The position numbers and the translations under genes were made by a program. From NCBI GenBank assembly GCA_964537935.1, contig CAZICT010000001.1, positions 277,553 to 341,552 on the forward strand: a stretch of DNA of 64,000 nucleotides. The letters are read 5' to 3'. The notes beneath the pieces were generated by a model. The model did no database searches, was not told the origin of the DNA, and saw nothing but the letters and a program-made list of their open reading frames with translations. Each line of letters starts with the position of its first letter. Positions within the stretch are counted from its first letter, which is position 1. This document shows, piece by piece, positions 37,919 through 64,000 of the stretch. The stretch is from an uncultured Candidatus Saccharibacteria bacterium. GTDB taxonomy: Bacteria > Patescibacteriota > Saccharimonadia > Saccharimonadales > CAZICT01.

Positions 37919-38666
37919 ACCGTACAATCTCCTTCGCTAATTGTTTATACGCCCTTGCACCCTTTGACCATTTATCATGCTCACTAACCGGGACTCCATG
38001 ACTTGGGGCTTCGGCTAGTTTAATGTTACGTGGTATTCGTGTGTTCAAAAGCTTGTCGCCAAAATATTTTTTAAGTTCACTAGCCACTTGTCCGGAAAGC
38101 GAGGTACGTGAATCAAACATAGTTATCAAAACACCAAGCAATTCCAGCTGCGGATTAAGGTTCTGTTTTACGTATTGCATAGTACTGAGCAGTTGCGACA
38201 AACCTTCAAGCGCGTAGTATTCCGCCTGTACTGGGACCAGCAACCAGTCGGCTGCGGTCAGCGCATTAACAGTAAGTAGTCCAAGCGCAGGTGGACAGTC
38301 AATTAGTATGTAGTCGTAAGTCACCGGAGCTAACACCTGTTTTAAAAACAATTCTCTTTTCTCTTGGCCTGCCAGGTTGATCTCCGCATTCGCAAGCTCG
38401 GCGTTGGTTGGCATAATATATAAGTTATTAATAGCCGTCTCATAAATAGCCTTGTCTGCTAATTGCGGCGAAAACAGCACGTCGTACATTGCTTTATCAA
38501 GCTGCTGCTTGTCTAGCCCAACACCGCTGGTTGCATTGCCTTGAGGATCAAAATCAACAATAAGCACCGATTTACCCGCTTTAGCCAAGTAAGCGCCCAA
38601 GCTTATGGCGGTCGTGGTTTTACCTACCCCGCCCTTTTGGTTCAATATTGCTATAGTATTGCTCAT
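37908..38666 (-). CDS. parA: Chromosome partitioning ATPase ParA/Soj
   Basis: 252 aa with the deviant Walker A motif NQKGGVGKTT. Confidence 0.92.
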   Translation of the reverse strand: MSNTIAILNQKGGVGKTTTAISLGAYLAKAGKSVLIVDFDPQGNATSGVGLDKQQLDKAMYDVLFSPQLADKAIYETAINNLYIMPTNAELANAEINLAGQEKRELFLKQVLAPVTYDYILIDCPPALGLLTVNALTAADWLLVPVQAEYYALEGLSQLLSTMQYVKQNLNPQLELLGVLITMFDSRTSLSGQVASELKKYFGDKLLNTRIPRNIKLAEAPSHGVPVSEHDKWSKGARAYKQLAKEIVRYVS

Positions 38667-42345: not shown

Positions 42346-43155
42346 CTAGTTAAGTTTGGTTATATATTCCGCCCAATCGGGTTTATCAATTGGACGAACC
42401 GATTGTATGAATACTAGGAGGTCTTTTTTATGGAAAATCACTGTTTGGGGGCCTTTCTCAGAAGTTCCCAGGTAAGCGGTGGGGTTAGCTGTTTCAATAA
42501 CTTCGGTCGCATAGAAATCTCTAGCAAGTGCCGCTACTTTGCTATCAGGATCATCTTTGAATTCTTCAGGTAATGGCTGTTGGCTTATGGTGACCTGTAC
42601 GTTAGCTATCAAGTCAGTAAAGCTTGCGACTCTCTTTTTTGAATCGTAACTGATGTGCTTGCTGGTGGTTTCTTCCGTTTTGCCGTCAGGAAGCACGGTG
42701 CTGAACTCAGGTTCTGAGGTCTCAGCCAGCACTCCGCTAGGATCAGCATCGTTTGACCGAAACTTCTTAACAGCTTGGAATCCGCCTACGCCTACCACCA
42801 GAATTGCTACGACGATACCGGAATACATCAGGTGTCTGCGCTTTATATTCGCTTTAGGTAATGTAATTTTGGGAAGAGTGAGCTTTAATGATACGTTTAC
42901 CTCTTTTTTCTCTTCAATCTTTTCTTTGGCCGGCTGTGATTTAGGTAGCTTCGGAGGCTGTAGTTCGGCTTTTTTATAAACAGGCTTATCAGGCTGTTTC
43001 TTGGCAGCGTAACGAATACGATCGCGCGAAATCTTTGCGCTCTTTTGCGGCTTGTTTTTCTTTACCTTATGATTGTCTATCCTTTGACGAAGCGCCTCCC
43101 ATTCCGGGTCGTCATCCAACCAAAAGCCGTTTGATTTGTTACCTTTACCACTCAT
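42346..43155 (-). CDS. Hypothetical bitopic membrane protein with Lys-rich cytoplasmic N-terminus
   Basis: 269 aa. About 105 aa of basic N-terminal region, one TM helix (YSGIVVAILVVGVGGFQAV), then an ~140-aa external domain with no recognised motif. Confidence 0.55.
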   Translation of the reverse strand: MSGKGNKSNGFWLDDDPEWEALRQRIDNHKVKKNKPQKSAKISRDRIRYAAKKQPDKPVYKKAELQPPKLPKSQPAKEKIEEKKEVNVSLKLTLPKITLPKANIKRRHLMYSGIVVAILVVGVGGFQAVKKFRSNDADPSGVLAETSEPEFSTVLPDGKTEETTSKHISYDSKKRVASFTDLIANVQVTISQQPLPEEFKDDPDSKVAALARDFYATEVIETANPTAYLGTSEKGPQTVIFHKKDLLVFIQSVRPIDKPDWAEYITKLN

Positions 43156-43186: not shown

Positions 43187-46100
43187 TTAAGGGAATGGTG
43201 TATCGAGCGGCTGTTGTTCACCGCCGGTGAAAGTCTTGCCATGGCGTAACCGCTTGCTCGGGTCACTCGTAAAGAACAGTGTTAAGTCATGGATTGTAGG
43301 ACCGCGCGTCACGTCGTCCGGGTAACCGTAGGTTCTAGAACTGTCGATAGTCAGGTTAATGTGGTGATATCTGGAGAAATGAGTCGGATCACCGTTCGCA
43401 TCCACCGGTATATAATCTTCCGGTTGGCCAAGCGTGACTTCTCCAAAAACCGTTTCCTGCCCCCAGGCGATTGTGGCGGCAGTTGATGACCTGTAGCTTA
43501 AGGCCCAGCGGGCACCAATTGAGTTATCAAGCCCGTTCAGCAACCACTTGGTCGGGAAAACGTCTGTATCCGTATCAATTAAACGCGTATAACGCGCTAC
43601 CTGCGGCTGCGACATTAACGATGAATATACCACTCTGTTCAATCCTGTATATTCAACTCCACTCGCACCGGCTTTGACTATCCTGACATTATCAATTACC
43701 CAGTGGTCATTTCCCTCACCACTATTTGTTACTTGTGTCCATCGAAAACGGGTACTGGATGTTTGCGCACCGGCCGGTACACTTACTTCAACTGTGGTCA
43801 TCGTTGGGAAGTTTGTCTCGTCATATGTTGCTATAGTAGTCCAGTTGGAGCCGCTATTAGTCGAATACTGTAAGATTACATCCTCACCCGCCTCGGGAGC
43901 ATTACATGATCCGCTGTTAACTGTAGGTATATATAAATCAAAGAAGATTGTACCGCCGCTTGAAACATCTACATCTACCGTATCTGCCCTGTCAGTACCC
44001 CCAGATGAATGAAGCGCGTTTCCGCTGACTGATGTACAGAACGTTGCTGCGGACATCCCGACCGTACTCGACCATTGAGAACCATCTATACTCGGATCAA
44101 AATCGTCTTGCTGAACTGTTAGAGGTGCGGTGCAGCCTCCGCCAAGAACATAAACCTTCCCTTGGTCATAAACCGCTGCTGACCCAAACCTGTCACCGCT
44201 ATATCTTGAACTTGTTTCATACCATTCCCCTATACCTGTCGGATTGTTGCCGCTCGCTATAGTGGTGTTGGCGCTTATAGGGGCAATTAACGTATTTGAG
44301 TCACAGCTACTATCATTTTTTCTGCCACCTACCAGATACATATAGCCGTTAGCCGCAAAGCCGTCTCCTTGACGTATAGCCGTTGGCAGACTGGTCGTAA
44401 AACTCCAACTATCAAGCGTTCCATTAGTGTTAATTTGGTTGTACTGAACGTCATTCAGGTAGTTTGAACCATCATAGCCTCCAAGCGTATATAGGTTATT
44501 GGCGTATGCTATGGCAGTAAGGCCGCTTCGTGCTACGTTTATTGGAGTACTCGTGGACCAGCCAGATGTTATGTTTCCGCCGCTGGTGAGAGGCGGGCTG
44601 ACATATACTGTATTAGTAACATTGCCGTTATCGTCTTCACCGCCAACTACAAATAGCCGATCATTCCATTCTGCCGCACCAAAGTCGGCACGTGCGGATG
44701 GTAATCCGTTTGAAGCAGTAGACCATGAGGTTATGTTTCCGCCGCTGCCCGGCGTAGCATAATACACTGTAGAAACAGGGCTTCCGGAAGAATACACCGG
44801 ATGCGGATACGAATAGTAAGTATTAGACATTGGACGGTTAAGCGTAGAATCGGGTAGTTGCCACCCTATCTCCGCGTGGTCGCCGCCACCGCCTTCTTTA
44901 TAGTTTACTTCTATGTAATACCTGTGGCCGGCTACTAGCGGTATCAGCGCAGACTGTTGCTCTCCGTACTTAGTCCATTCGTTAACATTGGTCCAGCTGC
45001 CATTAGGAACACTTGCAATGGTCGTAGCGCCACTGGGACGCTCATCTGTGCTTAATCTAAGCTCTGCCGCATCGTCAGCGGCTACCCAGAATCTGTAATT
45101 GCCGGTCTGCGGGGCACAAATTACAGCTGAGAGCCTGCCGCCAAATTGATCCGCAATATCAACGGGAGTTGATAAACTTGCTCCATTAATCGTCTGAGTT
45201 GAACTCGGGTTGTCAGGATAAATGCCGCTACTGTAGAGATCATTGATGCTTGTTCCGCCGCCTATGCTGTTATACCTTTCAAAGCGAGCAGTGCCATCAG
45301 CTGAGCATGAACCAGGATCTGGTGAAGAGTAATAAGTATTGGACATCGGGCGATTAAGGGTACCGCCTGGGAGTGTCCAGCCAACACTTACATGGTCTCC
45401 ACCGCCACCCTCCTTATAGTTAGCCTCTAAATAATATTGCTTACCGGCCACCAAGGATATTGGTGATGACTGCTGCTGAGGATATTTAGTCCACTCTGTA
45501 ATACCGGAATATCCGGGGACCGAAGCTATAGTGGTTGCGTTCGCTCGAGTGGTATCAGTACTTAATCTAAGCTCCGTTCCATCGTCACCAGCCACCCAGA
45601 AGGTGTAATTACCGGTTATCGGCACACAAATCAGTGCAGATACTCTTCCGCCAAAATTATCTGCGATATTTGCAGGTGATGTGAGCGTAGATCCGGTAAG
45701 AATCTGCGTAGAGCTCGGGTTATCCGGGAAGTTAGGGCTGCTATACAGGTCATTTATAGATGTGCCGCCTATTCCGTCGTATCTCTCGAATAGGGCCGTT
45801 CCATCAGCCGTACATTCTGTCGCACCTCTACCACCAAGATAATAGAGCGACCCTCCGGCTGTTTCCAGCTGTCCATATGCTCGGTTTTCCGGAAGATTTC
45901 CGCTTGCCGTAGACCAGGTACCGACCGTACCATCCGGATTAAGCTGAGCATACTGGACATCATTAACCATACCTTCACACTCTGTGCTGCCTACACAACC
46001 ACCGGCAATATATATATATCCGTCAAGTACCGTTGCACTTACTCCAATTCTGTCGGTCGCAAATAAGTTAGAAGATGTTTTATACTCTGCCGGCGCACCG

Positions 46101-49100
46101 CTGTCGTTATTATATAGCTGGAAAGTCTGAACCATGTCGGTCCTGGTGTTACATCCCCCCGGACTAACACCATCTGTACAGCCGCCTATGACGAAAGCAT
46201 AAGAATTAGATACCGGTACGTTAAGTCCCCACCGCTGATTTATGACAACAGATGAAACATCGAAAGGCTCCAGATTTCCATTGCTAACATTGATCTTGGC
46301 GTACTGGATATCAGACAGCACACCTCCTTGTGCAGCATCATAACCACCGACTGCGTATAAGTAGCCGTTATATCCAAAACTTGTGCCTCGTCTACGTCCA
46401 ATAGACATCACTATAGGATCGCCGTTTGAATCAGTTGGTTCAATCCAGCTATTACCGCTTACTGCCACTACATTATTGTTATTATCAAATTTTGCATAGC
46501 GGATTGATGAGAGGTCCAGTGCATTATCTCCAGGTGCTACTCCACCGACTAAATATATATAGTTTGCATAAACCGTACCTGCGTGTAACGCCAGACCTGG
46601 AGCATTAGCTTCTCTAATAGTACCGATTTGTAACTGACCAGAAGTGGTACAATCATTTGCATTGTCCTCTTCTATCATTCCGTCTGTCCTTATATTGCAT
46701 TTATAGACTTCCTGGGAGTTAGAACCAGACGGACAGCCGGCGCCACTTGTGCTTCCGCTGCAGCCACCAAATATAAATAGATTCCCCGGATATGTTCCTG
46801 CTGAATAGGGGTTAGCACGGGCATAGGCAAAAGTATAAGATACCGATGTAGCCGCGATAGCCGAGAAGCTTTGTGAAGTCCAGGCTCCATCTAAACTACC
46901 GTCACTGTTTACGGCAATATGATAAATATTCCCCTTAAGCCCCGACCCGCTTTGCCCACCGATAATATAAATTCTGCTATTAAATACTGCGACACCAGCG
47001 GCCGCTACTCCCCCCGGCACTGGATTTGAAGTATCCACGCAATAAGATGCACTCACCGTACCGCCAGGACATGATACCGGCCTAGTTAGTCTTCCATTGG
47101 AACCAATGGCTGAATAAATAGTGTTTCCAGTCGTAGATGTGCAGCCATTATTTGTACAACCTCCTATAATATAAAGATACCCGTTAACTATGGCTGTTAC
47201 ATTAAGCATGTTCCCTATTGTCGCTGTACCAGGCAGGTGACAGTTGTAAGGGTCAGACCCAGAACAAGGACTGTTACCGCTTGGAACGGTTGTACTTACT
47301 GTACTTGCGTCGCCGTCCTGGTTAATAATCCCGTATTCAACGCTGTTTGTTGCCCCTACACAGCTGCCATTTACCGTACTTTGGGCAGAACATCCCCCCA
47401 CTCTGTATAAAGTATTCCGCCAGGATACTAATCCAAACCCAATGAGCTGATTAGAAACTCCTTGCACGGTATTCCATTCGGCAAGACTGCCATCAGCATT
47501 AATACTAGCCAGCTGAACATCCGTTTCAATATCCAAACAATATCCACTGCCGTTGACTGAAGAACATCCGCCCGCCAGATATATATATCCGCCCCATATT
47601 GCCGTAAAGCTTCCGCCCCAGGTCATACGTCCTTCATCAAAACTATTGGTTTGAACCCAGTTGTTCATAGTGCCGTCGTTGTTCAAAACCGTATAATGCA
47701 CCGTATCCTGCATGGAGCTACCGCTCCGTCCACCAATCAGATAAAGTCTGTCGTTATAAACCTGCGTAGAATGACCATAGCGCACAGACGGTAAACTGGT
47801 CATCCCGGTCGTTGACCACGCGCTAAAAGTACCCGTAGGATTTAAGTTGGCGTATTCCATTGTACTAACTCCACCGGGATTAGCATTGGTCTGCCCGCCC
47901 ATTATATACAACCGGTTATTATAAGCAGCTGCCGCCAAATAACTACGCTCACTGGATAAGTTAGTTTCCGAACCGCGGTACCAATATACCCAGTTGTCAG
48001 GATTATTATCGGTCGGATGCCACAAGCTTGGTTCACCGTTAACTCCAATTTTTGCTATATATATATGATTTGATCTGGTACCGTTCTCGTTTACCCCGCC
48101 AATCGCGTAAAGATACCCGTTATATGCCACCAAAGACAGGCCGACCCGGGTTACGGGTAGATCATAATCGGGTTCAGTGCACCAATCATCACAAACGCCC
48201 GCGCCGGGGTTAGGGCTTTCTATGGCATGGGTAGTTGGGTTAAATTTTGCCCAATAGACTGCGTTTTCACCATTACCCTCTCCGGGGTCTTCATCAGGCG
48301 GCTCATAGGTAATGATTACTCTTCCGTTCGCCCCAGATCCACCGGTTGTGTTGCGGCCTCCAGCTCCTCCTCCACCAAGTGCATTTCCAGCTCCACTAGT
48401 AGCATTTCCACCATTACCACCACCTTCTGAACCTCCAGCTCCTCCTGAGGTACCGGAGGCATTGCCACCACCTTGTGTTGTGCCAGCGCCGCCACCGCCG
48501 CCACCGCCATTACTAAAAGTGCCTCCATTTGCTCCATTACCGCCGGAATACTTAACGTCACCGACCGAAGAGCCTGCTTGACCACCTGACCCCCCAGACG
48601 TACCAGAACCGCCAGAACCACCTAGAGCCATTGCTGTAGATGTATTAATGAAATACGAGCTCCCACCCGTTTGTCCTGCTGAACCGCCTTGTCCAACAAC
48701 TACGTTATAGTTAGCACTAGGAGTAACAGAAACAGTACGACGCACATAAGCTCCGCCGCCACCGCCGCCAGAACCGGTAAAAGAACTAGTACTTGTTGCG
48801 CCACCGCCGCCAGCACCCCAGGCATGAACTGTCACCTCTGTTACACCTTCAGGCACCGTCCAGGTGTCAGAAGAGTCAAAGACAACCTCTTGCTCATTTC
48901 CTGAAGCCGCCTGGAGCACATAGCGAACCACCACTATGCCGGAGCCACCATCGCCACCTCGACCGCTTGAGCCGGCGCCTTGCGTACCACCACCGCCACC
49001 GCCAGTGTTTGGTTGACCGTCTTGCCCGTCCGTATTACCACCTCCGGCGCCACCGCCACCGGCACCGCCAGCGCCGCCATTATCACCGGAAGCACCACCA

Positions 49101-50917
49101 CCACCGGCATAAGTAACTGATGATCCCGTTATTGAAGAAGAGAGACCGGCTCCACCTGCACCGCCGGTGCTGCTATTACCGTTGCCTCCGACTGATCCGG
49201 CTCCGCCGCCTCCAGCGCCGCCAGCGCCAACAGCAAGCGGTCCGGGTGTTCCGCCATTATTACCTTGCCCTGGCGTGCCGTTGCCTGATGAACCACCAAC
49301 ACCGCCGCCACCGCCGGAGCCTCCATTCCTACCGTTACTATTCAAATTTCCGCCACCGCCGCCGCCAATGGCTGTGGCCACGCTAGAAATAGATGAATTA
49401 CCACCATCGCTTCCATCCCCGGCATTTCCACCATTACCGCCCGCGCCAACAGTAACACTATATGAACCGGCTGATAGCGACGCAACACCTTCTAGCATCC
49501 CGCCTGCTCCGCCACCGCCCCGGCCCGCATTGCCGGTTGCTCCGGCGCCACCGCCACCACCGCCGACGATCAGATACTCAATATTTACTGATCCTCCACT
49601 TATGTTCAATGACCCCGAGTTAGTAAAAGTATGCACCCTATAATCAACACCGCCGACGTTGATATCTGTAATCGTACCACCGGTTACAGATGCCGAGCTC
49701 CCGCCTCCGGCTTCAACACCTCCTACCGTATAAATGTATCCCCCTGCTACTGCGGTACCATGCCCCCACCTAGCTACATTCAGACCCATTGTGCTATTCC
49801 ATTCATCAAAACGTGCGCCAGTGGTATGACCTTTTTGGATTAATTCATTTTCAATGTCAAAGTCCACATTTGTCTCATTATTTCCGCGCATCAGCTTTTG
49901 GGCGGTATCCACATAAATACTCGGGTCAATACTTAATGGATAAGACGCTTGGTTTAGACCATTTACAACTAGCCTTATAGTACTAGCAGCTATTTCATAA
50001 CTGAGGTCGAGCTCGGATACATCTTTACCTGATTCTACCGCTACGGGCGGCGGAACGGCGAACAGGAGTTTATCCTTTTTGGCATTTTTACGTGCTTTTT
50101 CGAGCAGCTCAGCATCTTCCTCAGAGCCAGTGCTGATATTTTTGCCGTTTATCGGTAATGAGCTTCCATAAAACCCAATTGAGCCGTTCGATTCAAGCCT
50201 GGCCTCTATATTGTCGGGCTTTTCAAGCTCATATTCAAAAACCAGCGAATCAACATCAACAGTCCTTTCGATTACGATATCTTCTTTGACTCCGGTAATC
50301 TGCCCTGTGTAAACCAGGTAGCCAGGGTAATCTGCGAGCCGGTGCACTATTTGATTTACATCTTTCCTTCCTTGTATGGCCTTAAATTTTGGAGTTAATT
50401 TAATGCTAACTTCGTTGTAAGGGTCGACTATGGTAAGTGCCGCCGATTTACTAGAGTCAACAGACGCCTTTATACGCGGCGTTCCGGAGCCGTTACCACT
50501 CAATCCTTCGCCGTTAGCCGGCACAAAGCTCTTGTTATAAGCATAACCGCCGGTATCGGCATCTTCAGTAAAATAAGAAGCCAGCCTGCTGTTCGGTTCT
50601 GGTAATACTGCTCTTATTTGCTCATTTAGATTGTACGGCTTTGTCTCTATAAACGGCATCATTGAGACGCCTAGCACAGAGGTAACAATCAAGGCCACCA
50701 TACATAGAGAATAAATTCTAATAAACAGCGGCTGCTTATGAAGTTGCTTGGTGTTTTTAATTGCCGCATTACCGATGTTAGATACTAAAAGATGAGCACG
50801 TGACAGAGTCTTTTTTGCGCCAGCAGCTGAAACGCGACGGGCAGACTTATATTTAAGCGTGCCCTTAGCATGCTTTATGGGTGTTTTTCTCCTGGCTGTT
50901 GATTTTATTCCATCCAT
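43187..50917 (-). CDS. Giant surface protein B (2576 aa): Kelch-type blades, two glycine-rich modules, tandem PA14-like domains, C-terminal jelly-roll-like and conserved tail modules
   Basis: Uninterrupted 7.7-kb ORF. Basic N-terminus plus a TM helix (aa 64-86). Many Kelch-like units are visible (e.g. YNGYLYAIGG, YNNRLYIMGG, YNDRLYLIGG). Domain details are given in the findings. The confidence refers to coding status. Confidence 0.88.
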   Translation of the reverse strand: MDGIKSTARRKTPIKHAKGTLKYKSARRVSAAGAKKTLSRAHLLVSNIGNAAIKNTKQLHKQPLFIRIYSLCMVALIVTSVLGVSMMPFIETKPYNLNEQIRAVLPEPNSRLASYFTEDADTGGYAYNKSFVPANGEGLSGNGSGTPRIKASVDSSKSAALTIVDPYNEVSIKLTPKFKAIQGRKDVNQIVHRLADYPGYLVYTGQITGVKEDIVIERTVDVDSLVFEYELEKPDNIEARLESNGSIGFYGSSLPINGKNISTGSEEDAELLEKARKNAKKDKLLFAVPPPVAVESGKDVSELDLSYEIAASTIRLVVNGLNQASYPLSIDPSIYVDTAQKLMRGNNETNVDFDIENELIQKGHTTGARFDEWNSTMGLNVARWGHGTAVAGGYIYTVGGVEAGGGSSASVTGGTITDINVGGVDYRVHTFTNSGSLNISGGSVNIEYLIVGGGGGGAGATGNAGRGGGGAGGMLEGVASLSAGSYSVTVGAGGNGGNAGDGSDGGNSSISSVATAIGGGGGGNLNSNGRNGGSGGGGGVGGSSGNGTPGQGNNGGTPGPLAVGAGGAGGGGAGSVGGNGNSSTGGAGGAGLSSSITGSSVTYAGGGGASGDNGGAGGAGGGGAGGGNTDGQDGQPNTGGGGGGTQGAGSSGRGGDGGSGIVVVRYVLQAASGNEQEVVFDSSDTWTVPEGVTEVTVHAWGAGGGGATSTSSFTGSGGGGGGAYVRRTVSVTPSANYNVVVGQGGSAGQTGGSSYFINTSTAMALGGSGGSGTSGGSGGQAGSSVGDVKYSGGNGANGGTFSNGGGGGGGAGTTQGGGNASGTSGGAGGSEGGGNGGNATSGAGNALGGGGAGGRNTTGGSGANGRVIITYEPPDEDPGEGNGENAVYWAKFNPTTHAIESPNPGAGVCDDWCTEPDYDLPVTRVGLSLVAYNGYLYAIGGVNENGTRSNHIYIAKIGVNGEPSLWHPTDNNPDNWVYWYRGSETNLSSERSYLAAAAYNNRLYIMGGQTNANPGGVSTMEYANLNPTGTFSAWSTTGMTSLPSVRYGHSTQVYNDRLYLIGGRSGSSMQDTVHYTVLNNDGTMNNWVQTNSFDEGRMTWGGSFTAIWGGYIYLAGGCSSVNGSGYCLDIETDVQLASINADGSLAEWNTVQGVSNQLIGFGLVSWRNTLYRVGGCSAQSTVNGSCVGATNSVEYGIINQDGDASTVSTTVPSGNSPCSGSDPYNCHLPGTATIGNMLNVTAIVNGYLYIIGGCTNNGCTSTTGNTIYSAIGSNGRLTRPVSCPGGTVSASYCVDTSNPVPGGVAAAGVAVFNSRIYIIGGQSGSGLKGNIYHIAVNSDGSLDGAWTSQSFSAIAATSVSYTFAYARANPYSAGTYPGNLFIFGGCSGSTSGAGCPSGSNSQEVYKCNIRTDGMIEEDNANDCTTSGQLQIGTIREANAPGLALHAGTVYANYIYLVGGVAPGDNALDLSSIRYAKFDNNNNVVAVSGNSWIEPTDSNGDPIVMSIGRRRGTSFGYNGYLYAVGGYDAAQGGVLSDIQYAKINVSNGNLEPFDVSSVVINQRWGLNVPVSNSYAFVIGGCTDGVSPGGCNTRTDMVQTFQLYNNDSGAPAEYKTSSNLFATDRIGVSATVLDGYIYIAGGCVGSTECEGMVNDVQYAQLNPDGTVGTWSTASGNLPENRAYGQLETAGGSLYYLGGRGATECTADGTALFERYDGIGGTSINDLYSSPNFPDNPSSTQILTGSTLTSPANIADNFGGRVSALICVPITGNYTFWVAGDDGTELRLSTDTTRANATTIASVPGYSGITEWTKYPQQQSSPISLVAGKQYYLEANYKEGGGGDHVSVGWTLPGGTLNRPMSNTYYSSPDPGSCSADGTARFERYNSIGGGTSINDLYSSGIYPDNPSSTQTINGASLSTPVDIADQFGGRLSAVICAPQTGNYRFWVAADDAAELRLSTDERPSGATTIASVPNGSWTNVNEWTKYGEQQSALIPLVAGHRYYIEVNYKEGGGGDHAEIGWQLPDSTLNRPMSNTYYSYPHPVYSSGSPVSTVYYATPGSGGNITSWSTASNGLPSARADFGAAEWNDRLFVVGGEDDNGNVTNTVYVSPPLTSGGNITSGWSTSTPINVARSGLTAIAYANNLYTLGGYDGSNYLNDVQYNQINTNGTLDSWSFTTSLPTAIRQGDGFAANGYMYLVGGRKNDSSCDSNTLIAPISANTTIASGNNPTGIGEWYETSSRYSGDRFGSAAVYDQGKVYVLGGGCTAPLTVQQDDFDPSIDGSQWSSTVGMSAATFCTSVSGNALHSSGGTDRADTVDVDVSSGGTIFFDLYIPTVNSGSCNAPEAGEDVILQYSTNSGSNWTTIATYDETNFPTMTTVEVSVPAGAQTSSTRFRWTQVTNSGEGNDHWVIDNVRIVKAGASGVEYTGLNRVVYSSLMSQPQVARYTRLIDTDTDVFPTKWLLNGLDNSIGARWALSYRSSTAATIAWGQETVFGEVTLGQPEDYIPVDANGDPTHFSRYHHINLTIDSSRTYGYPDDVTRGPTIHDLTLFFTSDPSKRLRHGKTFTGGEQQPLDTPFP
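43190..43645 (-). other. C-terminal ~150-aa module of protein B, shared with the Kelch protein at 63175-64000
   Basis: VARYTRLID...SRYHHINLTID...IHDLTLFF...RLRHGKTFTGGEQQPLDT aligns with SGRYSKLID...GRYVLITVNMD...IQDLTISA...RLRGGKFFLGNILQPLDT. Confidence 0.7.
44804..45307 (-). repeat. PA14-like module, copy 2 (protein B aa 1871-2038)
   Basis: CSADGTARFERYNSIGGGTSINDLYSSGIYPDNPSS...TGNYRFWVAADDAAELRLSTD...LVAGHRYYIEVNYKEGGGGDHAEIGWQLP. Confidence 0.7.
45320..45814 (-). repeat. PA14-like module, copy 1 (protein B aa 1702-1866)
   Basis: CTADGTALFERYDGIGGTSINDLYSSPNFPDNPSS...TGNYTFWVAGDDGTELRLSTD...LVAGKQYYLEANYKEGGGGDHVSVGWTLP. Confidence 0.7.
48308..49687 (-). other. Two consecutive glycine-rich modules of protein B (aa 411-870)
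   Basis: Module 1 runs from VTGGTITDINVGGVDYRVHTFTNSGSL...EYLIVGGGGGGAG to GGSGIVVVRY. Module 2 runs from QEVVFDSSDTWTVPEGVTEVTVHAWGAGGGG to GSGANGRVIITY. On the plus strand the DNA is CCACCGCC-type low complexity. Confidence 0.8.
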
Positions 50918-51438: not shown

Positions 51439-54400
51439 TTATTGACCCAGTGTCGTAAAGCTTAAGTTACCTACGTATACATTGGCATTGCTATTTGCCT
51501 TGACGTTAATCTTGAAGATCACATTGTTGTCGGCAGAAGCCGCACTAAATCCACAACCGGTCGCTTCATCACCGTTTATCGAAACTGTCTGCCATGTGTT
51601 AGCTGAGGTAGTGACCGTAGTCTCCGAACCGCAAGCATACAAATTACCGCCTTCACTTCTGAACATTTCATAGGTCACAATGCCGTTAGAAACATGGTCG
51701 GTCCGAGCAGTTAGTCTTACCGTGTCGTTATCCGAGAATTGTCCGAATTCTGCCGGCAGCTGGTAAGTTACATATATGCTGTAGGTTTGCTGAGTTGCCT
51801 GCGGTGAAGTCCAGCGGTAGTAGTTACCGGCAACGACGCCCGGGTTGCCTGTTCCATCACAGATAGCTGTATTTACTTCGAGTACGGATGCCTCGTTAGC
51901 ACAGAAGTCAGCGGTAAGTGTACCGACGCCTGTTCCGTTCAATACAGCTCCTGCATATTCAGGGGTCAAGTTCACGAAGTTGTTAGGCGCTGAACCACAA
52001 GCTCCCCAACCGTCCGCTTCGTAGCATTGGATGCGACCACTGGTAGTGTCGTAGTACATAGAGCCTAAGTAAGCTTCGTTGCCATCTTCTACCGGCGGTG
52101 CTGATGAGCGGTCGAGAGTAAACAACGTGATAGGTCCGCCGTTAAGTCCGCCGCCGATTTGTACATGCGATGGTTCTGTCGTGGCGTCATTGCGCTGGAA
52201 GCTCAAGTTATCTATCCAGAAAGTTCGTGAAGTCGAATCGGTTTGCCGAATAATGAGGTCCGGATTTGTGGCGGCTGTACCATCAGTAGTAATTGTACAT
52301 GTTACTTTCGTCCAGCCGGTAGTTATCAGAGTCTGCGTAGAGTAGTTAGTACAAGCTACCGTATTGGTGCCGCCATTCCTGGAATAGACAACCTGCAGAG
52401 TAGTAAACGTTCCGGAAGACAGCTTACCGGTAAACGAAACTTGGTAAGTGGTGTTGGTTGCCGGATTGCCACTTAGGTTGTTACGTACACCCCTGTTAGC
52501 ACCTGAACCAGTCACTACCTGCACACCGGCTTGACCTGTTACATATTGGCCATTTGTAGTAGTTCGGGTTACCGTACCGCCAGCCGGTGCAGCTGACCAG
52601 TTAGTACTAAAGCTACTTGATGTTTCGGCACCCCCGTTGGCAGCTAACTCAGTACCCAGGTTGTTGACACTAAACAGGTTGGTACCGATAGATGACTGAA
52701 CCTCAAGTATACCGCCAACTATCGGATTATCCGGGTTGTTACGGATAGTCAAACCGTCAGCGTTGCCACCAGGGCCATTCAATACGATTTCAGCGCCACC
52801 GGCACTGGTAAGCGTGTTGGTGTAAGCAGCCTGCAGCGTGGTAGAGCTGGATGCGCCGGCGGCTGTCCAGTCACTGCCGTTCCATATCATTGTTGCAGTG
52901 GTATTGGCTCGCATAGCAATTTCGTTACCGCCACCGCCGCCGTTCACTACTAGAGTGAAGTCATTGGATCCGTTGGCAGCAGTTACGTACACGACCCGGC
53001 CGGCAGTGAGATTTGTCGGGTCAGGAAGTGATACATCAAGGCCTGGGTTGGTCGTATTCACAATTACCGCAGCGTTGTTATCAACGTTTGCTTGAGTAAC
53101 TACACAGTTAGTCGCACAGTTTTGCTGGGTTGCAGTAGCAAATGTTGGAGTGTCTATTACTACCAAGCCTTTTACTCCGGTTCCTACACCCGCACCACCG
53201 CTCAGCAATACGTTACCGCCGTTAGCATTACCGGTACCAGCTGCGCTGCCGCCTTGCAAAACAAGGTTGCCGCCAGTAAATGCGCTTCCGCCGGCCCCGG
53301 CGTTCCCGGCACTTACGGTTAAGTTATTGCCAGCTGCGTTGGTGGTGCGGGTTTCCAGCTTAATCGTTCGTGCGCTATCACCACCAAACGATAGATCAGC
53401 AGTTGCATTTTCAGTACCAATCCCTACACGGCCACTAGCCTTTACTACAAAGAGAGGATCGTCAACGCTATTCAATAACCGCAATAAATCATTAGAAACC
53501 GTCAAAGTCTTTATAGTAAAGCCCACATTATCATCTGTAAATAACTCCGTATCATTACTGCCACTAGCATCATCCGAGGTAAGGATTAGCTTATAATCAG
53601 CTCCCTCACCCCTGATCTTAATATTTCCTTCAAACCATGCTCCTTGATTAAACAAGAATTCATCGTTGTGCGCGTCGTAGCTCACGGTTCCGTCATCACC
53701 ATCTGTACCCATACGCAGTCCACCTTGCAAATATATGTCTTTCCACCTAATGGCACTCGAGCCGATATCATAAGTATTATTTGCATCGGGGCCAACATCT
53801 CCCTGAACTTGTAGCGTAAAGTTAGTAGGTGCGGTCCTGATTCCAACTTGCATGTCTAATGTGTTAACGATCAACACTGGGTCACCATTACTGTCTTTAA
53901 CGGAAAGTGCGGTACTAGAGGAGTGGGATATTGTTGAATCCCCTTCAAACCATGTACTGCCGACTACTTCCAGTTTGGCACTTGTTGGGGTAGCGGTACC
54001 TATACCCACATTGCCATCGTTGCGGACAAAGAACAGAGAGTCGTCATCTGAGTTAAGAATGTTAAGCGCAGATGTAGCATTGGTGTTTCCGTTGCCTTTT
54101 ACTACAAGCTTCGAGCCTGGTTCGAACGTGCCAATTCCAACGCTGTGTCCATATACGCTATCTGTAACATTTAGCACCTGAGTTCCCTGGCTGACCAACC
54201 GAATTCCTGCGTCGGAGTTTAGGAATAGCTGACCGGATCCATTATGATTTATGAAACTGCCGCCACAATCATCACAGCTAGAAAATTGTAAGTAATTTAT
54301 ACCGTCTCTACTTATATTAAAGTCTTCGGACAAATTAGGTGCTCCGCCGCCCACGAATACGCGTCCTGCGCCATTTACAAGCAAACCTGTGCGCGGAGTT

Positions 54401-57400
54401 CCGTCAGCATCACCTACTACTTTTAGTACGTCTACATTTGCTGCGCCGTTATATGTCTCGATCGATAGACCGTCACCCGTTCCGGTATTTATGAGTTTAC
54501 TGACGTAGTCAGAGCCCACATCTGCCTGAGAGTATATGCCACCCTGGACATTCACCTGGTCGGTCGAGCGCACGCCCTGACCAAGGGTTAGGGTCTTCAC
54601 TCCATGCGATCCTACGGTAGGGTTATATGCAGGAGTATGCTGGAAGCCAACAAGCTGAGGGCCATAGCCGTATACTATTATGCTATCCGGAGCTGTAGCA
54701 GAATCTACATATATATCGAGGTAAGCATTATTGCTGCCGTCATTGCTTGCCCTTACCTGAGTAACTATGCTGCCATTGTATGCAGACTGGCGGGTCTGCG
54801 TAATAGTAGCTGGCATGCCGTAACCACTAACGTGGTATTGGAACTCTAACTCAGTTGGCTTATTGTCATAATTCGCTACGATACGGATTATGCCAGAACT
54901 GAATGCACTACCTGTAGATATTATCCGGTACCAACCTGTATTCCCTGCTGTTGGTGTGAAATCAGTCACATGTTCTACAAATATTCCACTAGTCTTTACG
55001 TCACCAGCAGCTACTTCCAGGCCATATCCAGGAGTGCTTGTACCAATACCTACTCTGTTGTTTGTTGCATCTACGAACAGCGTGTCGGTATCGAAGGCGA
55101 CATCGCCATTAGCTTGGACGGTCAGACGTACCTGATTATTAGTTATAATTTCTAAATCATCAGCATCTGTAGTGCCTAATACTGCCGTGGCATTAAAGTC
55201 ATTGCCACCCTGCATGAAAGAGTTAGCAGAAGTTAAGAAAGTAGAGCTACATGCAGCTAATTGGTTAGAGCTATTACGGCAAAGAACTGCATCAGTATTG
55301 GCTGTCCCTAGGGTACCTACGGTTACTATACCTGTGGTTTCCAGAGTAGTTACACCACTGACAGCACCAGCGCTGGAAACGTTTAAGCCTGCTGAAGTTA
55401 TGGACAACGTTCCAGTAGTATTACCTATAGAAGTGTTTGCTGTGCCAGTGGTGTTTATGGAAATAGTGCCTGTTATAGTCAGGCCTCCGGTACCCTGAAG
55501 CAATCCGGCTCCAGCGTTTACACCAACTGCAGTTACAGCACCGGCACTTGTTACAGTGAAGTTGCCAGTAGCGCCACCTACACTGAGAAGCTGGGATGGG
55601 GTTCCTGATGTGCCTATGCCCACATTTCCATTACCCATAATCCTCATTACTTCTGTGCCCAAAGTATTAGACAATCTCAGGTGATAATCGTTTGCAGTAG
55701 TGCCAGTAATTAGAGTCTGTAACGTAAAGTTATTCCACTTGGTAGAACCGTCATAGTAAGAACCTTGCATCTTAAACACAGGCGAATTGCGTGTATTAGT
55801 TCCATTATCCGCACCGCGGCTTGTTAAGTAAGCTTCTCCGTTGCTTGTATCAACACCGAATGTTGGTTGGCCAGCAAATTCGCCCACACGGAAAGCGCTA
55901 CTACCGCTCACTACAATCTCTACTTCTTTATTATGGATACCGAATCCGGCGCTTCCTGAATAGCCATTAATGGCCACGTCGCCGTCTGCCTGTAAAACAA
56001 ATCTATCATTCCCACCACTAAGCAAGTGAATCAGGTTGCCACCGCCAGTATCATTTATATGTATAGATGGATTGGCTGATGAATCTGCTTGAACTGTAGA
56101 AGGAGCTAATTGTACATAGCCTTGAAGGTCATCGGTGGTCGCAAAAGTTGAACTACAGCTCGCAAATTGACCGGCTGCATTACGGCAAAGAACGGTGTCG
56201 GTATCTGCCGTACCAAGTGCACCTACCGTAATAATGCCAGAAGTAGAAAGGGTTGTTACTCCACTCACTGCACCTGCGCTTGTTACGTTCAGGCCCGAGG
56301 AAGTTAGAGTAAGTGTACCAGTAGCATTACCGATGGCGGTGTTGGCTGTGCCGGAGGTGTTTATCGAGGTGGTGCCAGTTGCAGTTAGGCCGCCACTCAA
56401 CGTCGTAAGACCAGTTCCTACTGTAAATGTATTGGAGCCACTTACTGCTGTGTTTCCATCAAGTGATACTGTACCCGCACCATTTGGCGTAAGAATGACA
56501 CTACCATTACCCCCCATTGAAGTTAAGGTAAGATTTCCGGTATTTGTTCTTATAGTGGAAGCGCCATTGCCCTGGAACTCACCTCCACTTAGTATTGACC
56601 ATCTACCTAAGCTATTAGTATAGAACTCTATAGAGTTAGGGTTGGAGGTTGTGAGCCTGAGCGTGCCTGTACTGGTAATGTCGCCACCGTTTACTGCCAG
56701 GTCACCAGAAAGAGTGGCATCAACTGCGCTAATATCACCGCTAAAGGTAGCGTTTACTGCACCGATGTCTCCTGAAAATGTACCGTTAACTGCACCTAGA
56801 TCGCCAGCAAGTGTGACGTTACCGCTGGCGTCTACATCAAAGTTATTGAAATTAATAACAGCAGTCGTGCCTTGCAGGGTTTGTGCTCCTAAATCAATGC
56901 CGGCACCGGCAACGATTTGTCCATTAAACGTTTTAGCGCCGGCGAATGTTTGTGCACCAGTACTTACAAGCCCAGGATGTGTGCCGTCGGCAGTTTGCAT
57001 AAATAATGCGCCACCAGTTATGACTGCACCGTCTGCGCTCTTTGTTTGAGAATCTATGGTACCAATCGCACCGACTACGCTGCCACTAAGCGATACGGTC
57101 GTAACCCAATTACTGCCATTCCATATAAAGGTATTGCTCTGCCCTGCAGCTATGACACTGTCATACATAGTAAAGCTGACACTTCCGGTATTGTTTACAA
57201 ATGCAACGCGGCCGGCCGTAGCATCCGTGGGCGCAGGCAGCGTAAGCGTCTGTCCAGCAGTTGTTTGACTTACATTAAAGGTAGTAGCCACATCAACTGT
57301 CGCTGCAGCAGTGCCTATGTTTCCACCAGCTGCACGGTTAGTAATAGCGATTGCACTAAAGAGAGTGCTTCCTGCGTTGGTAAATTGCTGACCGGTTGCG

Positions 57401-59001
57401 ACGCTAAGACCTCCGTTGAATGTTGCCAGTCCGGTTACACCTAACGTGCCAGAGATACTTAAATCTCCAGTAATATTAGTGTCATCCTGCAGCTCAATCG
57501 TATCGGCAGAGTTAAGTATGATGCTATTGCCTGCACCATTTGAAGTAATTGTAGTAACACTACCTCGCACAGTAGTGGTTTGGCCGGTTGCACCGACGAC
57601 CAATGCTCCGCCTGACGTGATGTTCAGAGCTCCGGTGGAGGTAATGTTACCACCGTTTACTGCCAGGTCGCCAGCCAAGGTAACATCGCCATCCGCGTCA
57701 ACGTCGAAATTATCAAAATTAATGGTAGCTGAGGTGCCTTGAAGAATTTCTGTACCCAGATCAATTCCAGCGCTGGCAATAATTTGTCCATTAAATGTTT
57801 TAGCGCCGGCAAAGGTTTGTGCTGCTGTGCTGACCAGTCCGGCATAGGTATCATCTGCAGTTTGTAGATAAATAAGATTTGCAGCTACCGTTGCCCCGCT
57901 TGCGTTCTTAGCTGCTCCGTCAAGTGACCCTACTCCGGTTACTCCGCTACCTGCGCCATCTATATTGGTTCCAACCCAATTACTGCCATTCCATATATAT
58001 GCCTGTGACCGGGCACTACTTATCGTAACTCCGTACATAGCAAATGCTTCAGATCCTACATTATTTATATAGACAACGCGGCCAGCTGTTGTATCGGTTG
58101 GTGTCGGAAGCGTTAATGTCTGTCCAGCAGTAGTTTGGTTGATATTGAAAGTTGATGCTACGTCAACCGTGGCTTCAGCCGTGCCGATCACACCGCCTCC
58201 AGAAATATTAGAAATTGCAATCGCTGTAAACAAACTGCTGCCGGCATTTGTGAACTGTTGGCCGCTAGCAATTGTTGCGCCGCCACTAAAGGTTGCCAAA
58301 TCGTCAACCGTCAAGGTCCCACTAAAGTCTCCGTTTACGGCCGATACATCACCGCTGAAAGTGGCGTCGCCCGAGTTATTAATAACCAACACATCGCTGC
58401 CGCCGCTTTGTAGTTGCAATACATTGCCGCTACCAGCCTGGTTAACAGCAATTGCACTGTTAGTGGTATTCACAACTTGAGGTGTAGCCCCAGGGTTTAG
58501 CTGCACAAACTCATCTTCCGTACGACTTCCAAGTTGCTCAGCGCTGAACGCAAATGGTACCGCCGTAAGCTTGAGGCGCGGTGACATTTCACCGTCGCCG
58601 TTAACGTTCATGGTTAGGAACTTGTCATCGGACCAGTCTAAATCAGGGAAAGATGTGTGCGTGCCAAGGTAAACGCTCAGATAACCCGCCTTGACCGAAA
58701 CTTGAGCCGTCCCGCTGTTCCAGGTTTCGGTCCAAAGACTGCTGCCTCCAACCAAGTCTTCGTAGATGTTGAAGGTGATACTGTAGTTCCCATCAGGGAC
58801 GATAGAACCGGAGGCGCTTAGCAGACGAGCCTGAAAGTTGAGAGTGTCAGATGGAGCAGCAAAAGCCCTATCCGTCGAGCGCGTATATGTATTAAACCCG
58901 ATAACAGCAAGCAAGACCGCTGAAAATACAAAACTGGCTACACGGAACAATCTCAGTGCGCCAGCAAACTTAATGATGTTATGTTTTCTTGTTTTGGACA
59001 T
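51439..59001 (-). CDS. Giant secreted fibre-like protein C (2520 aa) with repeated modules and a CBM4/9-like domain
   Basis: Uninterrupted 7.6-kb ORF. Signal/anchor helix (aa 16-35) with a DRAFA/AP cleavage-like site. It shares its N-terminal domain with protein A. It has tandem 216-aa modules and two Cys-loop cassettes. It carries several GNVGIGT-type motifs, an NTYDIGSSAIRWKDIYL motif and a C-terminal lectin-like region. The confidence refers to coding status. Confidence 0.88.
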   Translation of the reverse strand: MSKTRKHNIIKFAGALRLFRVASFVFSAVLLAVIGFNTYTRSTDRAFAAPSDTLNFQARLLSASGSIVPDGNYSITFNIYEDLVGGSSLWTETWNSGTAQVSVKAGYLSVYLGTHTSFPDLDWSDDKFLTMNVNGDGEMSPRLKLTAVPFAFSAEQLGSRTEDEFVQLNPGATPQVVNTTNSAIAVNQAGSGNVLQLQSGGSDVLVINNSGDATFSGDVSAVNGDFSGTLTVDDLATFSGGATIASGQQFTNAGSSLFTAIAISNISGGGVIGTAEATVDVASTFNINQTTAGQTLTLPTPTDTTAGRVVYINNVGSEAFAMYGVTISSARSQAYIWNGSNWVGTNIDGAGSGVTGVGSLDGAAKNASGATVAANLIYLQTADDTYAGLVSTAAQTFAGAKTFNGQIIASAGIDLGTEILQGTSATINFDNFDVDADGDVTLAGDLAVNGGNITSTGALNITSGGALVVGATGQTTTVRGSVTTITSNGAGNSIILNSADTIELQDDTNITGDLSISGTLGVTGLATFNGGLSVATGQQFTNAGSTLFSAIAITNRAAGGNIGTAAATVDVATTFNVSQTTAGQTLTLPAPTDATAGRVAFVNNTGSVSFTMYDSVIAAGQSNTFIWNGSNWVTTVSLSGSVVGAIGTIDSQTKSADGAVITGGALFMQTADGTHPGLVSTGAQTFAGAKTFNGQIVAGAGIDLGAQTLQGTTAVINFNNFDVDASGNVTLAGDLGAVNGTFSGDIGAVNATFSGDISAVDATLSGDLAVNGGDITSTGTLRLTTSNPNSIEFYTNSLGRWSILSGGEFQGNGASTIRTNTGNLTLTSMGGNGSVILTPNGAGTVSLDGNTAVSGSNTFTVGTGLTTLSGGLTATGTTSINTSGTANTAIGNATGTLTLTSSGLNVTSAGAVSGVTTLSTSGIITVGALGTADTDTVLCRNAAGQFASCSSTFATTDDLQGYVQLAPSTVQADSSANPSIHINDTGGGNLIHLLSGGNDRFVLQADGDVAINGYSGSAGFGIHNKEVEIVVSGSSAFRVGEFAGQPTFGVDTSNGEAYLTSRGADNGTNTRNSPVFKMQGSYYDGSTKWNNFTLQTLITGTTANDYHLRLSNTLGTEVMRIMGNGNVGIGTSGTPSQLLSVGGATGNFTVTSAGAVTAVGVNAGAGLLQGTGGLTITGTISINTTGTANTSIGNTTGTLSITSAGLNVSSAGAVSGVTTLETTGIVTVGTLGTANTDAVLCRNSSNQLAACSSTFLTSANSFMQGGNDFNATAVLGTTDADDLEIITNNQVRLTVQANGDVAFDTDTLFVDATNNRVGIGTSTPGYGLEVAAGDVKTSGIFVEHVTDFTPTAGNTGWYRIISTGSAFSSGIIRIVANYDNKPTELEFQYHVSGYGMPATITQTRQSAYNGSIVTQVRASNDGSNNAYLDIYVDSATAPDSIIVYGYGPQLVGFQHTPAYNPTVGSHGVKTLTLGQGVRSTDQVNVQGGIYSQADVGSDYVSKLINTGTGDGLSIETYNGAANVDVLKVVGDADGTPRTGLLVNGAGRVFVGGGAPNLSEDFNISRDGINYLQFSSCDDCGGSFINHNGSGQLFLNSDAGIRLVSQGTQVLNVTDSVYGHSVGIGTFEPGSKLVVKGNGNTNATSALNILNSDDDSLFFVRNDGNVGIGTATPTSAKLEVVGSTWFEGDSTISHSSSTALSVKDSNGDPVLIVNTLDMQVGIRTAPTNFTLQVQGDVGPDANNTYDIGSSAIRWKDIYLQGGLRMGTDGDDGTVSYDAHNDEFLFNQGAWFEGNIKIRGEGADYKLILTSDDASGSNDTELFTDDNVGFTIKTLTVSNDLLRLLNSVDDPLFVVKASGRVGIGTENATADLSFGGDSARTIKLETRTTNAAGNNLTVSAGNAGAGGSAFTGGNLVLQGGSAAGTGNANGGNVLLSGGAGVGTGVKGLVVIDTPTFATATQQNCATNCVVTQANVDNNAAVIVNTTNPGLDVSLPDPTNLTAGRVVYVTAANGSNDFTLVVNGGGGGNEIAMRANTTATMIWNGSDWTAAGASSSTTLQAAYTNTLTSAGGAEIVLNGPGGNADGLTIRNNPDNPIVGGILEVQSSIGTNLFSVNNLGTELAANGGAETSSSFSTNWSAAPAGGTVTRTTTNGQYVTGQAGVQVVTGSGANRGVRNNLSGNPATNTTYQVSFTGKLSSGTFTTLQVVYSRNGGTNTVACTNYSTQTLITTGWTKVTCTITTDGTAATNPDLIIRQTDSTSRTFWIDNLSFQRNDATTEPSHVQIGGGLNGGPITLFTLDRSSAPPVEDGNEAYLGSMYYDTTSGRIQCYEADGWGACGSAPNNFVNLTPEYAGAVLNGTGVGTLTADFCANEASVLEVNTAICDGTGNPGVVAGNYYRWTSPQATQQTYSIYVTYQLPAEFGQFSDNDTVRLTARTDHVSNGIVTYEMFRSEGGNLYACGSETTVTTSANTWQTVSINGDEATGCGFSAASADNNVIFKINVKANSNANVYVGNLSFTTLGQ
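52192..52653 (-). other. CBM4/9-like carbohydrate-binding-type jelly-roll candidate in protein C (aa 2117-2270)
   Basis: ELAANGGAETSSSFSTNWSAAP...TTYQVSFTGKL...GWTKVTCTITT...RTFWIDNLSF fits the NGGFE...W...Y.vSf...W......f.iDdvsl pattern that I associate with CBM_4_9. Pattern recall only. Confidence 0.45.
56782..57429 (-). repeat. Protein C 216-aa module, copy 2 (aa 525-740)
   Basis: LATFNGGLSVATGQQFTNAGSTLFSAIAITN...TAGQTLTLPAPTDATAGRVAFVNNTGS...FIWNGSNWV...AQTFAGAKTFNGQIVAGAGIDLG...NFDVDASGNVTLAGDL. Confidence 0.85.
57652..58299 (-). repeat. Protein C 216-aa module, copy 1 (aa 235-450)
   Basis: LATFSGGATIASGQQFTNAGSSLFTAIAISN...TAGQTLTLPTPTDTTAGRVVYINNVGS...YIWNGSNWV...AQTFAGAKTFNGQIIASAGIDLG...NFDVDADGDVTLAGDL. 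Confidence 0.85.
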
Positions 59002-63174: not shown

Positions 63175-64000
63175 TTAGGCGCATACTGCCACCTTCCTAG
63201 TGTCTAGCGGTTGCAGTATATTTCCTAAGAAGAATTTACCGCCACGCAGGCGTAATTCCGGCGGAGGACTTCCGAGTATTGCGCTTATGGTTAAGTCTTG
63301 GATAGAAGAACTGTTGCTTGATGCATCAGGCTGGGTGGCACGTAGACTATCGTCCATATTAACGGTTATTAACACATACCTGCCAACCACGCTTGTCTGA
63401 CAAGTTCCACCAAGTATGTTAGGTGTAAATGGCGTACCTAATATACCGTCATTACCAGCAGCACGCAGTTCAAACTCATCTCCGGCCGCCGCTAAATCAC
63501 CGCTGAAATCAAAATTAGATACATCGACCTCGCTACCGAAATCAATTAACTTAGAGTATCTCCCTGAACGCGATATTATGTTTAGTGGCGCATATTCGAC
63601 AGTATCAAGTGGTCCACTGCCACTATTTCCCCCGAGCGTATAAATATATCCGTTATGAACTTCTGCAGTGTGGCCCCATCTACTAAAACTAAGCTCAGTT
63701 GTTGCCTGCCAGTCGCCCAATGTGCCGTTTGCACTAATCGGCGAATAGTGAACTACATCTAGATTCCCTACACCAGTATAACCACCTAGAACATACATAA
63801 ATCCGTTATATGCTACTGCCTCAATATTACTCATAAATAAGTTGAGGTTGGTTGTGTATGTCCATCCGCCTAGTGTTCCATTAGGGTTGATTGCTGCAAA
63901 AGTTACTGCATTATATTCTTGTGTTTGCGTTTCGCCTCCCAAAGCATAAACATATCCGTTATATACGACTGTGTCATGATTAGAGCGAGCAAACGGAAGA
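63175..64000 (-). CDS. Kelch-repeat protein, N-terminal part outside the window, with the same C-terminal module as protein B
   Basis: The track ORF begins at a TTG at 63942. The frame stays open to position 64000 (my translation: LPFARSNHDTVVYNGYVYALGGETQ...). Kelch units YNGFMYVLGG and HNGYIYTLGG. The C-terminus contains RLRGGKFFLGNILQPLDT. Confidence 0.8.
   Translation of the reverse strand, partial: LPFARSNHDTVVYNGYVYALGGETQTQEYNAVTFAAINPNGTLGGWTYTTNLNLFMSNIEAVAYNGFMYVLGGYTGVGNLDVVHYSPISANGTLGDWQATTELSFSRWGHTAEVHNGYIYTLGGNSGSGPLDTVEYAPLNIISRSGRYSKLIDFGSEVDVSNFDFSGDLAAAGDEFELRAAGNDGILGTPFTPNILGGTCQTSVVGRYVLITVNMDDSLRATQPDASSNSSSIQDLTISAILGSPPPELRLRGGKFFLGNILQPLDTRKVAVCA

Follow-up and report, generated by a model that had tools for sequence, protein, structure and literature searches.

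The C-terminal sorting domain of the T9SS of Bacteroidota (Por_Secre_tail/TIGR04183) is a small β-sandwich that ends very large proteins, either secreted or on the cell surface; it is found on diverse cargo and is conserved while the remainder of the protein varies. Jelly-roll carbohydrate-binding modules (CBM61, CBM32, Fbs1) are all-β sandwiches with acidic clusters on extracellular multidomain carriers; conserved clusters of this kind characterise jelly-roll lectins that depend on Ca2+. In galactose and glyoxal oxidases, a Kelch propeller is followed by a C-terminal E-set β-sandwich (DUF1929) that ends the protein. Gram-positive surface proteins may carry the motif K-x-Y-K-x-G-K-x-W (TIGR03715), which is N-terminal and lies inside the signal peptide. 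Saccharibacteria live attached to other bacteria and have a Gram-positive-like envelope, with no outer membrane or T9SS; few details have been described of how they construct this envelope and hold on to their hosts.

Here we describe the C-terminal module, hereafter the tail, of two Kelch proteins (A and B) encoded in a 64,000-nucleotide stretch of Saccharibacteria DNA (the window). Judging from the relatives collected, the tail represents a domain family still without curation, which has a distinctive linear motif at its end and is restricted to giant Kelch proteins of Saccharibacteria. In its working logic it comes closest to the domains that end other large surface proteins, for example the T9SS domain or terminal carbohydrate-binding modules. 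Like the T9SS domain, the tail is a small terminal β-sandwich conserved on very large proteins that otherwise vary; in contrast to it, the tail sits on one protein family, is lacking from the other giant proteins of the window, and has an extra conserved, flexible terminal peptide. Neither tail matches Por_Secre_tail/TIGR04183 in Pfam or NCBIfam at E≤1, and this assignment was rejected. The tail resembles the carbohydrate-binding jelly rolls in size, all-β sandwich, acidic clusters and type of carrier, but they have no counterpart of its RLRxGKTF...LD peptide and the similarity is weak (TM about 0.4, E at least 5e-3). With galactose oxidase, the carriers share a C-terminal β-sandwich after a Kelch propeller; however, the tail has no DUF1929 match in Pfam, and its junction with the propeller accepts entire inserted domains. 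A galactose-oxidase-like architecture was discarded, as no galactose oxidase is among the top 50 PDB fold matches of a propeller-plus-tail model. The tail segment K-R-L-R-H-G-K-T-F resembles K-x-Y-K-x-G-K-x-W, a likeness that we take to be a lead only: the tail motif is at the extreme C-terminus, its first Lys is not conserved, and there is no NCBIfam match. A sortase (LPXTG) or exosortase signal was likewise rejected, since the tails end in hydrophilic sequence (...QPLDTPFP and ...QPLDTRKVAVCA) with no hydrophobic segment; the curated C-terminal sorting domains of NCBIfam find no match in the tails either.

Results

Location and homology of the two tails

Tail B (151 aa; 43190..43642, minus strand) forms the last 151 residues of the giant Kelch protein B (2576 aa; 43187..50917, minus strand). 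Tail A (144 aa; 63178..63609, minus strand), which is supported by translation, BLASTP against B and an independent HMM, ends Kelch protein A, whose C-terminal fragment occupies 63175..64000 of the minus strand (translation; Pfam Kelch_1, E=5.4e-10). The 274 visible residues of this open reading frame (63175..>64000) comprise three Kelch blades and then the 144-residue tail; the gene continues past the edge of the window, and nothing suggests that it is truncated. The terminal motif of tail A, LRLRGGKFFLGNILQPLDT (63199..63255, minus strand), is followed by RKVAVCA with a single Cys, and that of tail B is RLRHGKTFTGGEQQPLDT (43199..43252, minus strand). The initial annotation had located both tails correctly; both genes, however, lie on the minus strand, and a plus-strand reading is ruled out by translated plus-strand frames that are filled with stop codons at these positions.

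By alignment statistics, tails A and B are homologous, with a similarity beyond chance. BLASTP aligned them over 151 columns with 28% identity (42.7 bits, E=4e-8), and all four motif pairs on which the similarity had originally been proposed are present in this alignment. An HMM built from tail B and 28 database relatives (29 tails), with tail A omitted, also recovered tail A at a significant E=1.4e-7 from a six-frame translation of the whole window. The same search returned no third copy besides tails A and B, and the giant open reading frames at 51439-59001 and 38755-42090 (both minus strand) are without the module.

Tail A begins immediately after a Kelch blade, whereas the tail of B is set apart from the final Kelch blade by a Reelin_subrepeat-B domain (residues 2289-2413; 43679..44053, minus strand; Pfam PF21471, E=2.6e-25). 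The earlier description of a module that follows Kelch blades and ends the protein is thus accurate for its terminal position in both proteins, and for direct contact with a blade in A but not in B.

Structure and conservation of the tail

The tail consists of two parts, a sandwich of ~110 residues and then a basic, Gly-containing peptide of ~20 residues (RLRxGKTFxxGxxQxLDxP). Structure prediction, proposed in the initial annotation, gave a β-sandwich with a low-confidence terminal peptide: AlphaFold2, run on tail B with a 30-sequence alignment, modelled a ~110-residue β-sandwich at residues 15-126 (mean pLDDT 74, pTM 0.65) and assigned the last ~20 residues a pLDDT below 50. In a second model, which comprised the last propeller of B, Reelin-B and the tail (25 sequences, pTM 0.53), residues 540-557 likewise had a pLDDT below 50. 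The terminal peptide is therefore predicted to be flexible, packed neither on the sandwich nor on the last propeller; both models were built on shallow alignments (25-30 sequences), and the predicted disorder is correspondingly weak as evidence.

Conservation was measured over 64 non-redundant tails (pairwise identity <60%). RLRxGKTF is the most conserved segment of the tail at 3.2 bits per site, and the whole terminal peptide averages 2.65 bits per site, compared with 2.1 for both the N-terminal strand YS(R/K)LxDxDxDVxPxK and the (I/L)DDS...FPD block, and 1.6 for the variable core. Invariant or nearly invariant residues are R131, L132, G135, F138 and D147 (B numbering), and two sandwich aspartates are also conserved; in tail A, R120, G124 and D95 are invariant and L121, F127 and D136 nearly so. 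The sandwich has conserved acidic clusters (LIDxDxDV, IDDS and FPD/YPDD) and one loop that tolerates insertions. By analogy with other extracellular β-sandwich domains, the acidic clusters may be Ca2+ sites.

The view that the tail belongs to no named domain was upheld by profile searches of Pfam, NCBIfam and PDB sequences: neither tail matches a Pfam or NCBIfam model at E≤1, and a 30-sequence tail profile found nothing meaningful among PDB sequences, with avidin as a chance match only (E=0.099). Foldseek comparison of the tail model with the PDB returned weak matches only (E 5e-3 to 2e-2, TM 0.36-0.43), to CBM61, the Fbs1 sugar-binding domain, chitobiase C-terminal domains, CBM32 and viral jelly rolls. 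The modelled core may thus be described as a jelly-roll-like sandwich of uncertain affinity. The modelled last propeller of B, for its part, matches the six-bladed, peptide-binding Kelch domains of KLHL12 and KEAP1 (E~1e-12). Full-text literature searches, covering Kelch proteins of Saccharibacteria, Patescibacteria or the candidate phyla radiation and giant or PA14-domain proteins of Saccharibacteria, returned no account of the tail family; for S. epibionticum, which is genetically tractable, the annotation tables based on Pfam list no Kelch entry.

The carriers form one Kelch family

Kelch repeats were present in all 44 carriers tested (A, B, 11 scanned singly and 31 as a set), a co-occurrence that bears out the tail as a real conserved unit, terminal in its protein and linked to Kelch proteins. 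Protein B is composed, in order, of a basic N-terminus with a transmembrane segment, an N-domain, Gly_rich_2, Kelch arrays, PA14, further Kelch repeats, Reelin-B and the tail; its Kelch content amounts to nine Kelch_1 stretches and several Kelch-domain models of Pfam. The N-domain (~340 residues, ~57-400 of B; window 49700-50750, minus strand), which follows the basic stretch and the transmembrane segment and has no match in Pfam, is common to 69 of the 72 full-length carriers (at least 1300 residues), at an equivalent N-terminal position in each, and occurs also in P0241, a member of an A-type cluster. A basic stretch and then a hydrophobic segment are found at the N-terminus of B and of most carriers.

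On this domain evidence, the carriers are one monophyletic family with fixed ends, of which the tail is the C-terminal end-domain. Because the N-domain and the Kelch repeats are shared so widely, A and B are paralogs within one giant Kelch family, which rules out a sorting module shuffled among proteins. The initial annotation had pictured a module distributed across otherwise different proteins; that picture does not hold, given the 69 of 72 carriers with B's N-domain and the 44 of 44 with Kelch repeats.

The variable part of the family lies between the fixed ends and consists of Kelch propeller arrays with varying inserted domains. In protein A and in most relatives whose C-terminus was read, the tail comes straight after the last blade, but this junction can also hold Reelin-B (in B), a domain of ~200 residues (P0097, P0098 and P0101) or glycine-rich stretches (P0132 and P0136). 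Insertions also occur in the tail loop after the 'YRS' strand, where P0104 has LamG/DUF2341 and P0110 a further insertion. The family thus has two insertion hot spots, the junction of last blade and tail and this tail loop. Reelin_subrepeat-B is absent at E≤1e-5 from the five tier-1 relatives scanned singly and occurs in just one of the 31 members of alignment A5.

Between 48000 and 50000 of the window, GC content rises to 0.54 with a GC skew of -0.26, coinciding with the Gly_rich_2 region of B (residues 436-666). This rise is a codon-composition effect and not foreign DNA.

Distribution

An exhaustive HMMER search over 1.84 billion cluster representatives yielded 357 proteins at E≤1e-3, 191 of them at E≤1e-10. 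Of the 150 matches listed, nearly all run to the C-terminus of the protein; these 150 are mostly proteins of 1300-2500 residues, the remainder being short fragments. A word-index search with tail B gave 83 relatives (50-75% identity), mostly fragments from short metagenome contigs, and the three that bear names are Candidatus Saccharibacteria or Saccharimonadales; the same search with tail A gave no relatives, and a profile of divergent tails found only five fragments. The taxonomy of the divergent subfamilies accordingly rests on synteny and on ParA/ParB identity. A scan of one genome per GTDB species produced 166 confirmed loci, of which 80 were retained. The labels of these 80 are nearly all Saccharibacteria or Saccharimonadales, with a few Patescibacteria, Parcubacteria or plain 'bacterium', and every named source of the module is Saccharibacteria or Patescibacteria. 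In all 80, the module ends 0-19 residues ahead of the stop codon.

We grouped the tails into three subfamilies from their C-terminal sequences. B-like tails end in ...DPSKRLRHGKTFTGGEQQPLDTPF, some of them extended by CRQSxDxxCPLP; divergent tails end in ...NPxxRLRGG(K/R)TFxxGxxxxLDAxP; and A-like tails end in ...RLRGGKFFxxxxLQPLDT, then a single Cys. A Cys just past the LDT motif is recurrent, as in P0159, P0193, P0197, P0222, P0227 and many tier-1 proteins. It takes the form of a single Cys in A-type tails (A itself ends ...DTRKVAVCA) and of the CRQSxDxxCPLP extension in many B-type tails, and one subfamily has two Cys within the motif loop. From their position, these residues may serve in disulfide locking.

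Genomic context

Directly downstream of B lies the gene of a 269-aa single-pass membrane protein (42346..43155, minus strand), our candidate partner of the tail. The two genes belong to a minus-strand cassette (38755-59001 and 37040-38666) in the order 2520-aa giant, Kelch giant B, 269-aa membrane protein, 1111-aa giant, parA, parB. Upstream of B, the 2520-aa protein (51439..59001, minus strand) is a non-Kelch giant secreted protein without the tail; the 1111-aa giant (38755-42090, minus strand) follows the 269-aa gene. The first ~230 residues of the 1111-aa and 2520-aa proteins are in common, including a Sec signal peptide (...A(S/F)AAPS(S/D)TLNFQARL), and on this similarity the two appear to be paralogs.

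The N-terminal region of the 269-aa protein is basic; the protein also has a single transmembrane segment and, on the outer side, a conserved domain of ~130 residues with the motif VSQQPLP...GTSxKGPQxVIF. The protein has no family match in Pfam or the PDB, with DUF4367 in one of 17 members (E=0.21) a mere hint. The co-occurrence of tails with a particular neighbour, raised as a question in the initial annotation, was found here: a homolog of the 269-aa protein adjoins the tail gene, downstream and on the same strand, in 75 of the 80 loci, usually across a gap of a few tens of bases. In 48 of the 80, the upstream DNA encodes the conserved C-terminus of the 2520-aa protein, and downstream genes include the 1111-residue paralog in 20 and parA in 14. 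The order can be recognised even where the tail is of the divergent RLRDGKTF type, as in L083, which has a 2520-type giant, a Kelch giant, a 287-residue homolog of the small protein, ParA (57% identical to the ParA of the window) and ParB. The 269-aa partner was not found beside tail A or beside the tail-bearing genes L081, L082 and L084, and a search for a second partner gene near tail A found none.

Protein B had been placed in an 'island', a setting that we do not recover: B stands in a parAB-adjacent cassette conserved across Saccharibacteria, and the window, judged by its housekeeping gene content, is ordinary Saccharibacteria chromosome. Its genes include CTP synthase, FtsEX, RF2, SecA, several tRNA synthetases, UppS, RseP, ribosomal proteins S2 and L31, RF1, PrmC, HtrA, an LCP enzyme, signal peptidase and ParB/ParA. 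Envelope proteases are encoded at 1950-3173, 24754-25593, 25603-26718 and 32638-33840 (all minus strand), and comprise an S41 C-terminal processing peptidase with PDZ, a Rce1-like CPBP protease, RseP and HtrA.

Discussion

An anchoring or partner-binding role for the tail, first suggested in the initial annotation, is a reasonable hypothesis; the terminal peptide, conserved and predicted to be flexible, and the membrane protein encoded alongside both speak for it. More specifically, we propose, with a probability of roughly 0.35, that the giant protein is fastened at its far end by the terminal peptide, which would dock to a conserved self component. The giant Kelch protein would leave the cell through Sec and stay anchored by the transmembrane segment near its N-terminus, while the terminal peptide would serve as a short linear motif for docking the other end. 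The 269-aa membrane protein would be the leading candidate receptor, and an anionic wall polymer an alternative target. Attachment at both ends would display the Kelch array along the cell surface, where the variable inserts (PA14, Reelin-B, LamG) would do the ligand binding. The cores of the tail subfamilies are just ~25-30% identical and yet the peptide is conserved throughout; this conservation across divergent subfamilies, together with the variability of the ligand-type domains, suggests that the peptide probably recognises a self component and not a host-specific ligand. The synteny with the 269-aa gene may merely reflect an operon of B orthologs, since the partner is absent at tail A, L081, L082 and L084.

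The fold of the sandwich suggests a different role, in which it would be a carbohydrate-binding module at the distal tip of an adhesin anchored at its N-terminus, with a polysaccharide of the host bacterium or of the cell's own wall as ligand and the peptide as part of the binding site or a lid over it. The best PDB fold matches of the tail are of this kind (CBM61, the Fbs1 sugar-binding domain, chitobiase C-terminal domains and CBM32), its acidic clusters are conserved, and sugar-binding-type domains occur around it (PA14 in B itself, CBM_4_9 in a neighbouring protein). These fold matches are weak, however (E at least 5e-3, TM 0.36-0.43), and no profile of a carbohydrate-binding module matches; moreover, it is the flexible peptide and not the sandwich surface that is most conserved, and conservation across divergent species, presumably with different hosts, ill suits a host-specific ligand. 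We therefore regard a glycan-binding tip as rather unlikely. The restriction of the tail to one family also means that it could instead have a role internal to the protein, capping or stabilising the terminal Kelch propeller or array, or serving as a folding nucleus after Sec export, with the peptide packed onto a propeller of its own chain. Such a role would fit the strict co-occurrence with Kelch repeats (44/44, with no other architecture carrying the tail), the position of the tail directly after the last blade in A and most relatives read, and the closeness in fold of the Kelch blades to the peptide-binding KLHL/KEAP1 propellers. Yet entire domains can intervene between blade and tail, which argues against an obligatory rigid contact, AlphaFold2 leaves the peptide undocked on the last propeller (pLDDT <50, pTM 0.53), and no galactose-oxidase-like match appears among the top 50 fold matches; an internal structural element is unlikely on this evidence.

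Confinement to one family bears the other way on a generic sorting signal, which it makes less likely. Were the peptide a signal for C-terminal processing or secretion, a protease or sorting factor would recognise it, after which it would be cleaved off or linked covalently. The housekeeping envelope proteases of the window are possible readers; one candidate would be a C-terminal processing protease with PDZ, of which the S41 enzyme at 1950-3173 is an example. The extreme C-terminal position in 80 of 80 loci and the high conservation of an exposed peptide would agree with this, as would the presence in the window of PDZ proteases (S41, HtrA, RseP) and a Rce1-like protease, though these are ordinary housekeeping genes. 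Known sorting signals, on the other hand, decorate many unrelated cargoes, the tails have no LPXTG, hydrophobic segment or NCBIfam sorting-domain match, and the variable extensions of 0-19 residues after the motif ill suit recognition of a free C-terminus, all of which makes a processing signal quite improbable. The peptide might also insert into a Kelch propeller or β-sandwich of a neighbouring chain, sometimes locked by a disulfide, so that the proteins assemble into a surface lattice or fibre. Each chain has a single conserved peptide but many propellers, whose fold is similar to that of peptide-binding Kelch domains, and the recurrent Cys after the motif (CRQSxDxxCPLP, or a single Cys in A-type tails) could supply the lock; the tail of B itself, however, has no Cys, and we hold self-assembly to be very unlikely.

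It might further be that peptide and sandwich together constitute a new envelope-docking system of Saccharibacteria, in which the peptide would plug into either the outer domain of the 269-aa protein or a Kelch propeller of a neighbour. This broader proposal is improbable, but were it true, the giant Kelch proteins would build a surface coat, by being pinned at each end or by polymerising, and such a coat could organise the contact of the epibiont with its host. Proteins currently annotated as 'hypothetical' now have a family-wide hallmark, a C-terminal domain that awaits curation and includes a sharply conserved peptide of 20 residues, and one paralog (B) has been placed in a conserved four-gene cassette beside parAB. 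Annotators gain a new domain model, and the terminal peptide with its adjacent 269-aa membrane protein offers a small, precise target for work on how giant surface proteins are positioned. Should the tail prove to be an ordinary lectin module, or to do no more than cap the structure, better annotation would be all that is gained.

Other features of the window

Three further features of the window deserve mention. The 678-aa β-helix/Big_7 protein encoded at 60951-62987 (plus strand) holds a duplicated DxDxDGxVDIFDLSxLL repeat in its last ~55 residues; by eye this end repeat looks like a dockerin, and the Pfam dockerin model is absent at E≤0.01. A heliorhodopsin gene (19340-20296, minus strand; Pfam PF18761, E=1.3e-18) stands amid housekeeping genes. 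Directly downstream of FtsEX (5844-7501), tandem paralogs encode CHAP-domain proteins (3303-4415 and 4555-5688, both minus strand), an arrangement typical of FtsEX-controlled cell-wall hydrolases.
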